A stretch of 64,000 nucleotides of DNA, taken from assembly GCA_043808015.1 (NCBI GenBank), contig JAZDFI010000008.1, positions 13,271-77,270 of the forward strand. The letters run 5' to 3'. The stretch comes from Candidatus Aenigmatarchaeota archaeon. GTDB lineage: Archaea > Aenigmatarchaeota > Aenigmatarchaeia > QMZP01 > QMZT01. The translations under genes and the position numbers were made by a program. The notes beneath the pieces are model-generated. The model was not told where the DNA came from. It worked only from the letters and a program-made list of their open reading frames with translations, and ran no database searches. The number at the start of each line of letters is the position of its first letter. Position 1 is the first letter of the stretch. Positions 48,705 to 51,700 of this stretch are shown here, piece by piece.

Positions 48705-51700
48705 CTACGTTGTGTGGTGGATGGTTTGGTTCGAGGGCCGAAGAAGGACGTGGCAAGCTGCGATATGCCGGGGGTAGACGCAAGCAGTCTTTGAACTCCG
48801 GATCTCTCAATGAGACTTCTTAACTTCGGTTGTTGGCCTTCGGGTCATCGGTGACGCCCTGAATTGAAACATCTTAGTAGGGGCAGGAAAAGAGAACAAT
48901 AGTTATTCCCTTAGTAGAGGCGATTGAAAAGGGAAGAGGACAAACCGAATCTTCTGGTGTAAGCCAGGAGAGATGTGGGGTTCGGACCTGTGCTCATCCT
49001 AACTTCTAAGTCCGAAGTGATCTGGAAAGATCCACGGCAAAGGGTGATAGTCCCGTAGGAGGACAGAAGAAGGTTGATAGCGGGTATCCAGAGTACCAAT
49101 GGTCGAAGATCCATTGGGAATACGGGAGCCAGTAACTCCTAATCCTAAATACACCTCGAGTCCGATAGCGCACAAGTACGGTGACGGAAAAATGAAAAGT
49201 ATCCTTAATCGGAGATTAAAAGAGCCTGAAACCATGCAACTATAGGTAGACATTGCTTCTGCTTTGCAGGAGTTTTGTCGCCCGTGCGGAAACACGCGTC
49301 AAGGAGTTTATTTTTGTGGCGAGGGTAATTCAAGTACCCATAGCGAAAGCGAGAACTGCGCAGCGGCTTCGTGCCGTCAGGCAGTCAGGTTTGAAAGAGC
49401 CTACAGTCACAAGGATAAGACCTGAAGCTAGTCGATCTAGCCCTTGGTAGGGTGAAGTCTGGCGAAAGCCAGATGGAGGCCCGGTAGAGATGCTGAGATT
49501 CAAATCGCTCACGTAACCTGGGGCTAGGAGTGAAATGCTAATCGAGATTAGCGATAGCTGGTTCCTCTCGAAATATGCCTCAGCATAGCCTGGTCGGAGA
49601 TGGATGGCGGGGTATAGATACTGATTGGGCAACCAAGGACCGAAAGGTCCAGTTGTCCTGTCAAACTCGGAATCTACCATCATCGCAGAAGACCGGAGTG
49701 GGAGCGCCGGGGTAAGCTCGGTGTTCGAAAGGGCGAGAACCCAGCCTAAAATTAAGGTCCCTAAATTCAAGCTAAGTGATAAAAAGCGTCTTCAACCTTA
49801 TACAATAGGGAAGTTGGCTCAGAAGCAGCCACCTTTTAAAGAGTGCGTAATAGCTCACCTATCTAGGTTGTGGGCCTTGAAAATGGACGGGACTAAGCTT
49901 GGTACCGATATTTTAGATTCCTAAAAGGAATATGGTAGAGAGGTGTCCTGCTAGGGCAGAAGTTCTCTCGTAAGAGGGAATGGACCTTGCAGGAATAAGA
50001 ATCTTGATGATAGTAGCAGCAATAGTGAAGTGAGACACTTCACCACCTAAAGGGCAAGGGTTCCTCAGCAACGTTCGTCGACTGAGGGTTAGTCGGTCCT
50101 AAGGCAAGCCCCAATTGGAACTTGCCGAAAGGGAAGCAGGTTAATATTCCTGCACCATGAGAATACGAGTGGCGACACAAGTTCATTTCCTGACGCTTCT
50201 GGATAAATCGATCATTTCGGTGATTAACCGGTTAAACCTGTGGAGTACCGTAATGGTGAGAAACAGGCCAAGCCGGCAATAGCTGACGTATGTCAGTTCG
50301 GTTGACTTCAGGAGCCCGTGAAAAGGGAAATGGAATGGATTTTTCATGTCCGTACCAAGAACCGTTACTGGTGCCCCTCGCTGAGAAGGCGAAGGTGTAA
50401 TAGGAAAATTCAGGTCAAGGAATTCGGCAAAATCGCCCTGTACCTTTGGTATAAGGGGTGCCTAATCTTCTGGCTCAGCCAGAACGATTAGGTCTCAGTA
50501 ACTAGTGGGTTGCGACTGTTTAACAAAAACGTAGGGGGCTGCTAGGTGGAAACGCTTTGTATAGCTCTTGAGGCCTGCCCAGTGCCGGTGTGTTAAACTG
50601 GCTAAAACCAGCCAAGCCCCGGTAAACGGCGGCGGTAACTCTGACCGTCTTAAGGTAGCGTAATCCCTTGTCGATTAATTGTCGACCTGCATGAATGGCT
50701 TAACGACATCCCAACTGTCTTGATCTGAAGCCTAGCGAACTTAGTTGTCCAGCGAATATCCTGGAGTCCTTCAGCGGGACGAGAAGACCCCATAGAGCTT
50801 TACTGCAGTCTGTTGTTGTAGTATGCTGATGGTCGCATAGCGTAAGTGGGAGCATCGCACTCAAGTCTTCGGGTTTGAGGAAGGCGTCAATGTAACACCA
50901 CTCCACCGTCAACATATTGCTTACCTTTAGGGGGACAGCAATTGATGGGCAGTTTGGCTGGGGCGGTACGCCTCTGATAAAGGATCAGAGGCGCCCTATG
51001 GTCGGCTCATTCCGGTCAGAAATCGGAAGCAGAGTGTAAGGGCAAAAGCCGGCCTGATAGGATTCTGCAAGGCAAAGAATCCTAACGCGAAAGCGTGGCC
51101 TAGCGATCCGCTGTGTCTCTATTAGCTGAGAGCCAGCTCTGTCAGAAAAGTTACCTTGGGGGTAATGGAGTCGTGGCGCGTGAGAGTCCATAACTCATTT
51201 CTCGTTCTCGATAAGTCTGAACAAAAAACGATACATACCTTGTGTATGTTAAAGCTTTTTGTCAGGACAAGCAGAAAGCAGAATATATAATCATCTGTTG
51301 GCTGTTGAGTCACACGTATCTATGCCCATTCATTGGGCTGCAAAGGTGCGTGTGATGATGAAAAATCGAGAAGTGAGAGGTCAAATCGACCGCGCTCGTT
51401 GCTTCTCCGCCGTCGGCTCGGCTCTTCCTGGACGTGCAGCAGCGTCCAAGGGTGGAGGTGTTCACTCATTAAAGAGTCACGCTAGCTGGGTTAAATACGG
51501 TGCGAGCCAGTATGGTCTATATCTGCTGAAGGTGTTGGTTACCTGAGGGTAGAATGCAATTAGTACGAAAGGAACACTGCGTTGTGGCCTCTGGTGTATC
51601 GGTTGTGTCTGCATTGCCGAGTAGCTACGCCGCTGAGGATAAAGGCTGAAAGCATCTAAGCCTGAAGCCTCTCCCGAAAATAGGTAACCGTTCATCAAAC

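Follow-up and report, generated by a model that had tools for sequence, protein, structure and literature searches.

The window, by which we mean the whole stretch of 64,000 nucleotides (nt) analysed here, comes from a DPANN archaeon of the Aenigmatarchaeota and contains a ribosomal RNA (rRNA) operon whose 23S gene is interrupted in the terminal loop of helix 89 (H89). We assign a probability of about 0.9 to the reading that this interruption, the 193-nt segment at positions 51192-51384 of the forward strand, is a spliced archaeal bulge-helix-bulge (BHB) intron without a homing endonuclease. The segment is not a retained expansion of H89. A spliced intron was also the conservative reading in the initial annotation, and this reading is now supported by a near-canonical BHB motif at the boundaries, by splice sites that restore the universal loop of the helix and by six circular RNA contigs from which the segment is missing.

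In the window, Rfam places the archaeal rRNA operon at 46401-47839 (16S), 48693-51828 (23S) and 54658-54766 (tRNA); the match of the 23S gene to LSU_rRNA_archaea is complete (2477 bits). When the region 50950-51560 was aligned with cmscan, the 23S sequence was continuous except for one block of 195 unaligned nucleotides in the terminal loop of H89 (in the window GAGAGUCCA, the block, then UCGACC; in the consensus AgAGcuCa, two nucleotides, then UcGACC). By our own count from the landmarks Ψ2457, A2503 and U2504, we take the loop of H89 to be G2470-C2480 in Escherichia coli numbering and the insert to lie between U2477 and A2478. The initial annotation had described an insert of about 190 nt that splits the conserved sequence GAGAGYYCAUAUCGAC. 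The split, the approximate size and the start at 51192 are all borne out by the sequence; the end that it gave, 51382, falls 2 nt short of 51384. It was also right in calling the insert AT-rich, with a G+C content of 39% compared with 50% in the 23S exons, and free of any open reading frame (ORF) of note. The longest ORF fully within the insert has 37 codons' worth of amino acids (37 aa), the overlapping ORFs (up to 95 aa) extend into the rRNA exons and, since homologous inserts differ by many insertions and deletions, no reading frame is conserved. No LAGLIDADG or other homing endonuclease ORF was found in the intron. The fold of the insert region has an energy of −93.3 kcal/mol (z = −6.26), and none of 200 shuffles folded equally well.

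The boundaries of the insert form a near-canonical BHB, with two 3-nt bulges and a central helix of four positions (Table 1). The motif is flanked by two exon pairs, G51184-C51387 and A51185-U51386, which are the closing pairs of H89, and its central helix consists of G51186-C51382, U51187·U51381, C51188-G51380 and C51189-G51379. An A·A mismatch (51193/51378) separates the BHB from the closing helix CTCATTTCTCG/CGAGAAGTGAG. This stem, which had been described at the outset as 11 base pairs (bp) with one G-U, is exactly that (51194-51204/51367-51377), and it is kept in 12 related sequences with compensatory change. The bulges AUA and AAA each lie 3' of their own central-helix strand, on opposite strands, and the same placement is found in the tRNA motif as described by the hBHBh' definition. 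That definition of the BHB motif is set out in PMC5829648. Cutting after the second nucleotide of both bulges restores the universal H89 loop CAUAUCGAC, and the ligated exons (GAGAGUCCAU joined to AUCGACC) are identical to the universal loop sequence; cuts after the third bulge nucleotide on both strands give an equivalent product. Among the 12 sequences compared, the BHB half-sites were nearly invariant, with a single U-for-C wobble (L019) and either A or C at position 51193, and the 3' half GGUCAAAUCGACC was the same in all of them.

We then looked at copies of the gene in metagenome contigs. The search pattern was made of 5'-exon sequence only and thus finds genes with or without the insert; 12 loci were returned. 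In half of them (L006, L008, L009, L013, L015 and L016) the insert was present, with a length of 123-187 nt, and several of these loci were linear contigs of 6-10 kb that included spacers and neighbouring sequence. The other six (L005, L007, L010, L011, L012 and L014), which come from six samples, had no insert. Their junction reads GAGAGTCCATATCGACC, that is GAGAGTCCAT joined to ATCGACC at exactly the predicted position, with no nucleotide lost or gained. By blastn, all six insert-free contigs were circularly permuted 23S sequences in which window position 51832 runs directly into 48693, and four of them were 3.0-3.1 kb long, meaning that these four wrap round a circle. Genomic DNA cannot yield a circular permutation at BHB ends, and the insert-free contigs were therefore assembled from RNA. 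They were 90-98% identical to the window over full-length matches. L005 and L007 were 98-99% identical to it over 978 exon nucleotides and nested among the insert-bearing genomic sequences, and L011 and L014 formed a sister group (95% identity). The RNA copies have no insert and show exactly joined exons, whereas the genes of the same clade do contain the insert, which shows that splicing removes the segment and ligates its flanks.

The flanks of the 23S rRNA, which form a canonical processing-stem BHB, served as a calibration. The outer helix of this stem is GGCGAGUUGUCC/GGACAACUCGCC, its central helix is UGAC (48689-92)/GUCA (51826-29), the bulges are AAA (48693-95) and AAA (51830-32), and the stem, together with a K-loop-like sequence that precedes it, occupies 48652-48698 and 51817-51846. 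If each bulge is cut after its second nucleotide, the expected circle junction is GUCAAA joined to AAAGG, with six A's. This junction was observed in the circular contigs L005, L007, L010 and L014, with four A's in L011 and five in L012. The predicted excised RNA (48695-51831) measures 3137 nt, or 2944 nt once the 193 nt of the intron are subtracted, and 2944 nt is the self-overlap period of L005 (matches at 32 and 2976). Given the observed junction, the 23S rRNA is a circular molecule of about 2944 nt in this clade. The same machinery has other substrates in this host, namely the 23S processing-stem BHB, a tRNA-Lys intron and a 16S BHB intron. BHB processing is expected to yield a circular 23S RNA, which in many archaea is the main form of 23S in total RNA (PMC12918454), and the endonucleases of DPANN archaea have a loop that is associated with a relaxed BHB specificity (PMC5829648).

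The distribution of the intron was studied in two further ways. When about 185,000 genomes, each representing one species, were scanned with an unusual peptidyl-transferase-centre sequence of the gene, four gave matches: the Aenigmatarchaeota metagenome-assembled genomes (MAGs) L001, from Lac Pavin sediment, and L002, and the Woesearchaeota MAGs L003 and L004. Both Aenigmatarchaeota had the insert, which was nearly identical to that of the window in L001 and 159 nt long, with different hairpin sequences, in L002. In both Woesearchaeota the H89 loop was uninterrupted (GAGAGTTCATATCGAC); an insert of about 53 nt is found in these two at the tip of helix 91, which adjoins H89 in the ribosome (L003 ~6095-6150, L004 ~655-710). 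A gene with a metallo-β-lactamase fold, which lies downstream of the operon (52851-53510), served as a handle for further genomic rRNA operons. These neighbour look-ups recovered L017/L018, L019, L024 and L025, all with the intron (154-187 nt), and no rRNA was found at L020-L023, L026 and L029. L028 (5119-5193, SMTZ1_10005022) also has the intron, but without its 3' stem and 3' BHB half and without the exon bases AUCGACCGC, a loss that would destroy H89; the copy is either dead or mis-assembled. In L030, a 52-kb genomic contig from a more distant member of the Aenigmatarchaeota (63% protein identity), the H89 loop at 4059-4075 is uninterrupted and reads GAGAGTCCACATCGAC; the exon sequence differs too, and so does the 23S leader (GUCCCGAUUUUUGAAG). 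Altogether, the intron was found in all 13 distinct genomic versions from the clade (14 with the partly deleted L028), at lengths of 123-193 nt, and in none of the six RNA-derived contigs. The 23S divergence within the intron-bearing clade reaches about 25% where aligned. The intron is fixed within one clade, which is bounded by L030, and missing outside it, and it seems to have been inherited vertically.

Other rRNA inserts in the relatives are patchy, unlike the fixed intron of H89. The 16S of L024 holds two inserts of about 600 nt (979-1562 and 1681-2287). L025 has a 669-nt 23S insert at window position 49850 (3246-3913) that encodes a LAGLIDADG protein, as well as inserts of 70-124 nt in its 16S and near the 3' end of its 23S (5874-5963, 887-955 and 139-261), and L017 has a 213-nt insert at window position 50525 (5343-5555).

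Splicing would proceed as follows. In the precursor, residues G2472-C2475 of the H89 loop (GUCC) would pair with the last four intron nucleotides before the 3' bulge (GGUC), leaving a U·U unpaired. The tRNA-splicing endonuclease (EndA) would then cleave both bulges after their second nucleotide, and an RNA ligase (RtcB) would join the exons into GAGAGUCCAU-AUCGACC. The intron would presumably be released as a circle with the expected junction GAGAGGTCAA to AACTCATTTCTCG (also written GAGAGGUCAA to AACUCAUUUCUCG). Several points speak against this account. The second position of the central helix is a U·U in 12 of 12 sequences, so that the motif is not strictly canonical, and in L019 the exon sequence GUUC turns one central C-G into U-G, weakening the BHB further. 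The unconstrained fold favours another register of the closing stem over the BHB, a register made possible by the UUCUCG-UUCUCG repeat, and imposing the BHB costs 5.9 kcal/mol (−87.4 compared with the minimum free energy of −93.3 kcal/mol). Which enzymes act, and what becomes of the intron once it is excised, is inferred. Finally, the RNA origin of the insert-free contigs was deduced from their circular permutation, not from sample metadata, and RNA-derived and genomic contigs were compared across different samples.

If the 193 nt were instead a retained expansion segment, they would stay in the mature 23S rRNA as an extension of H89 near the path of the A-site tRNA. Fixation in the clade, the highly structured fold (z = −6.26), covariation and a protein-binding-like kink-turn (K-turn) would all suit such a segment. 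It is nevertheless very unlikely, since six circular 23S RNA contigs from six samples are without the insert and have the universal loop exactly, two of them being 98-99% identical to the exons, and since the segment is retained in none of the RNA-derived contigs that we recovered. The same contigs bear on an intervening sequence of the bacterial kind, which is excised by an RNase without religation and leaves a fragmented 23S rRNA. Helix-tip inserts with a long closing stem are typical of these elements, but the RNA-derived contigs are continuous over the junction, with no nucleotide lost or added, and the boundaries are a BHB rather than a plain duplex, which makes this alternative extremely unlikely.

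The insert-free sequences could also represent a polymorphism, that is, strains whose genes are without the insert. The distant relative L030 does lack it in a 52-kb genomic contig, and reliance on permutation rather than on metadata to recognise RNA leaves some room for this idea. However, every insert-free contig from the clade is circularly permuted at the ends predicted by the BHB, which genomic DNA cannot give, no linear contig from the clade is without the insert, and L030 differs in both exon and leader; we thus regard a polymorphism as highly improbable. Group I introns occur in DPANN 23S genes, and the known sites are listed as 1923, 1931, 2500 and 2593 (PMC6125680), not the H89 loop. 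The homologues found here measure only 123-193 nt, against about 200 nt or more for group I introns, the insert gave no Intron_gpI match even at E ≤ 10 and a BHB is present instead, leaving a self-splicing group I or group II intron a negligible probability.

The interior of the BHB intron has a conserved fold. Folds computed sequence by sequence gave the same four-way architecture (closing stem P1, then P2, P3 and P4) in all lineages despite the length changes. RNAalifold run on the raw MAFFT alignment yielded a poor consensus because the variable hairpins and a 3-nt shift of the K-turn were misaligned, and it was replaced by the per-sequence folds, an anchor-based table and a trimmed alignment of 12 sequences that covers the exon, the BHB, P1, the K-turn and the base of P4. 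In the trimmed alignment, the proposed structure pairs 97.7% of the cells and eight pairs change on both sides. None of 500 shuffles reached the observed level of covariation, and controls with slid partners paired 31-50%. At the outermost pair of P1, C-G is replaced by U-A in L025 and by U-G in four further sequences, and double changes are found in six of the eight basal pairs of P4.

The sequence that frames P4 follows the pattern 5'-UUGA-G[P4]Y-RAU-GA-(A/C)A in all 12 sequences. In the K-turn consensus, for which PMC3608112 cites Klein and colleagues (2001), a 3-nt bulge is accompanied by a canonical helix, by tandem G·A/A·G pairs and by a short A-U helix of non-canonical type. Judged by its sequence, the segment framing P4 matches this consensus, and the K-turn-like motif probably binds L7Ae. 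Most economically, it would nucleate a self-contained fold in which the BHB is presented. A related feature of the 23S leader is a kink-loop-like (K-loop-like) UUGA-GUUCCU-UGAUGA (48652-48667) located just upstream of the processing stem and conserved in relatives. The 3' half of the intron is indeed laid out like this leader, each with a K-turn or K-loop that is followed, after about 5 nt, by a helix strand of 12 nt, a central-helix strand of 4 nt and an AAA bulge.

We also considered a box C/D guide RNA, which was rejected: the CUGA is not conserved (L002 and L013 have UCAGGA), there is no conserved D box and no guide with the usual spacing, which would be 10-12 nt ending 5 nt from a D or D' box. 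The box C/D families sR20 and sR17 of Rfam reached only 10-13 bits on the insert (E = 2.8-4.3), which is chance level. More generally, when the insert was compared with Rfam at E ≤ 10, all matches were at chance level (miRNA, Streptococcus small RNAs and the two C/D families), none better than E = 2. The 15-nt stretch directly 5' of P4, with the D'-like UUGA box among its last bases, had no match elsewhere in the window on either strand, and the conserved CUGUUGGCUGUUGAG had no complement elsewhere in the window.

A further conserved stretch, on the 3' strand of P2, is perfectly complementary to the 5' side of the 23S processing stem (Table 1). This 16/16 antisense match is the best blastn-short match of the intron in the masked 64-kb window (E = 0.002), and the core antisense motif is over-represented there, with eight matches at two mismatches or fewer against 1.5 expected. 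With RNAduplex, the best duplex involved the stretch in seven of the eight lineages with a known leader, and the duplex energy ranged from −26 to −32 kcal/mol in all eight (about −20 for shuffles). In L008 and in L025/L028, which are not sisters, the leader has GACU for GACA and the intron AGUCAGG for UGUCAGG. These two compensatory events between leader and intron suggest a pairing, if weakly (roughly p = 0.1, the change in L008 accompanying a deletion). Apart from the AAA bulge, the 3' processing strand is identical to the antisense stretch; descent from the processing stem, or mimicry of it, accounts for the match just as well. The 16S intron has no such complementarity to its own leader, so that this feature is not general.

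The K-turn-like module and the antisense stretch suggest a role in folding or in the ordering of processing steps. One form of this idea is that the intron is a cis-acting element of ribosome biogenesis, in which the K-turn and the antisense stretch bind the 5' processing strand and mask or hold the leader. It is favoured because of the fixation of the intron across a deep clade, its invariant interior motifs and the two co-changes of leader and intron; the same data fit common descent or mimicry, and we consider it rather unlikely. With masking of this kind, the central helix and bulge of the leader would stay covered until transcription, about 550 nt further on, has produced the true 3' strand, and the loss of the intron from the peptidyl-transferase domain would be coupled to the step in which the 23S rRNA is excised and made circular.

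Table 1. Features of the 23S rRNA gene, its intron and the free-standing LAGLIDADG genes (window positions)
Feature	Positions	Strand	Remarks
Antisense target, 23S leader strand UUGUCCUGACAAAAAG	48683-48698	+	Holds the central helix UGAC 48689-48692 and the bulge AAA 48693-48695, cut after A48694
23S rRNA as excised from the precursor	48695-51831	+	3137 nt with the intron, 2944 nt spliced; ends set by the processing-stem BHB
5' BHB half	51184-51193	+	Exon pairs G51184 and A51185; central strand GUCC 51186-51189; bulge AUA 51190-51192, cut after U51191; mismatched A51193
BHB intron, H89 terminal loop	51192-51384	+	193 nt; cmscan block; missing from 6 RNA-derived contigs, in all in-clade genomic contigs
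P1 (h') 5' strand CUCAUUUCUCG	51194-51204	+	11 bp with 51367-51377; 99.2% of cells paired; UUCUCG repeat follows
P2 hairpin	51215-51268	+	Length variable: shortened to CCUGA/UCAGG in L008, longer in others (minimum-free-energy folds, alignment)
Conserved stretch CUUUUUGUCAGGACAA, 3' strand of P2	51255-51270	+	Perfect 16-nt reverse complement of 48698-48683
P3 hairpin (AGCAG.../...CUGUU), then invariant linker GGCU	51270-51306	+	CTGTTGGCTGTTGAG once only in the window
K-turn-like module	51305-51361	+	UUGA 51305-51308; P4 51309-51356, closing G-U; bulge GAU 51357-51359; putative sheared-pair GA 51360-51361, then AAAA
P1 (h') 3' strand CGAGAAGUGAG	51367-51377	+	Pairs with 51194-51204
3' BHB half	51378-51387	+	A51378; central strand GGUC 51379-51382; bulge AAA 51383-51385, cut after A51384; exon pairs U51386 and C51387
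23S 3' processing strand	51826-51846	+	GUCA 51826-51829; bulge AAA 51830-51832, cut after A51831; then GGACAACUCGCCAA
Free-standing LAGLIDADG_3 gene	8799-9545	+	Pfam
Free-standing LAGLIDADG_3 gene	20538-21422	-	Pfam

The 16S gene of the window has a BHB intron of its own, an ORF-less segment of 144 nt (47808-47951) between E. coli positions A1499 and A1500. Its central helix is GUCG/CGAU, its bulges are UAA and AAA and its stem has 12 bp; canonical cuts restore GUCGUA joined to ACAAGG. The Rfam match of the 16S ends at 47839 because of this intron, the true 3' end (GGAUCACCUCCU) being near 47993. The same intron is found in L002, L006, L013, L017, L024 and L025 (108-130 nt) with a covarying stem, and it carries a K-turn-like UUGA-G[hairpin]U-UAU-GA. 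The tRNA-Lys(CUU) gene (54658-54766, 58.7 bits with Rfam) has an intron of about 36-38 nt in its anticodon loop; ARAGORN found no tRNA in the window, missing this intron-containing gene that Rfam detects. A tRNA-like sequence of about 99 nt in the 16S-23S spacer (48086-48184) scored 25.2 bits, just under the Rfam threshold, and its length means that it is probably interrupted. Just downstream of the 23S gene, a conserved non-coding stretch (52093-52600) is common to L006, L008 and L013. It matches archaeal RNase P RNA in part and below the threshold (52212-52339, 28.8 bits, E = 1.7e-6) and may be a divergent RNase P RNA gene.

Two blocks of the peptidyl-transferase centre are substituted in this 23S gene in an unusual way, at positions that are nearly universal. 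At 51165-51174, GGGAUAACAG is changed into GGGGUAAUGG (A2448G, C2452U and A2453G), and this first block was found in only four of the ~185,000 species genomes. At about 51405-51415, ACCUCGAUGU is changed into UUCUCCGCCGU (A2497U, C2499U, U2500C, A2503C and U2504C). Two pairs of these changes, C2452U/U2504C and A2453G/C2499U, resemble partners that have been swapped or compensated.

The initial annotation had raised the possibility that the two free-standing LAGLIDADG genes of the window are relics of rRNA introns. Both lie in AT-rich islands (37-40% G+C against about 50%) at 25-40 kb from the rRNA operon. A tblastn comparison of the two proteins with the intron-bearing rRNA operons of L017, L024 and L025, intron-encoded ORFs included, gave no match at E ≤ 1e-3. 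The suggestion thus found no support, and we found no link between these genes and the rRNA introns.

The intron of H89 can be compared with several known systems. Like the BHB introns of the Desulfurococcus mobilis 23S, the Staphylothermus marinus 23S and the 16S of Pyrobaculum and other Thermoproteales, ORF-less forms among them, it lies in a conserved rRNA loop and has 3-nt bulges, a helix of four positions and precise ligation. It differs from them in its host, the Aenigmatarchaeota (a mesophilic DPANN group), in its site in the H89 loop (2477/2478), in the invariant U·U, in being fixed in a clade instead of patchy, and in a conserved interior with a K-turn-like motif. The processing stems of pre-16S and pre-23S rRNA share the same motif and cleavage rule, here within the same transcript. 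In the case of the processing stem the excised and circularised product is the functional RNA, whereas for this intron it is the ligated flanks. The pre-tRNA-Trp intron of Haloferax volcanii, which carries a box C/D guide RNA, is likewise a BHB intron with a K-turn motif of L7Ae type (that of the H89 intron being recognised in the primary sequence); in contrast, the H89 intron has no conserved D box or usual guide, and its elements come in the order D'-like, hairpin, C'-like. The rRNA expansion segments ES9 and ES39 of Asgard archaea are also structured RNA at helix tips, which is retained there and removed here. As in the present case, some archaeal rRNA BHB introns have no homing endonuclease (PMC3608112, PMC4496867). 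Neither an intron in the H89 loop (2477/2478) nor such an intron in this phylum, fixed in a clade or with a K-turn-bearing fold, was found in the catalogues and other literature searched, the coverage of which is incomplete; 23S 2477/2478 is therefore a probable, not a certain, new archaeal rRNA intron site.

These results remove the striking claim of a 190-nt expansion beside the A-site accommodation corridor, as this DPANN gene encodes a normal H89 after splicing. The record of archaeal BHB introns gains an rRNA site, 23S 2477/2478, and a host phylum. The work also shows that splicing can be demonstrated from sequences alone, by comparing the circular 23S RNA present in public assemblies with genomic contigs. 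With interruptions here, at 16S 1499/1500 and at sporadic sites in relatives, these rRNA genes are truncated by standard models, and primers or probes may fail on them. Lastly, the K-turn-like module common to two fixed introns and the 23S leader, together with the antisense match, hints that the introns are integrated into the maturation of rRNA.

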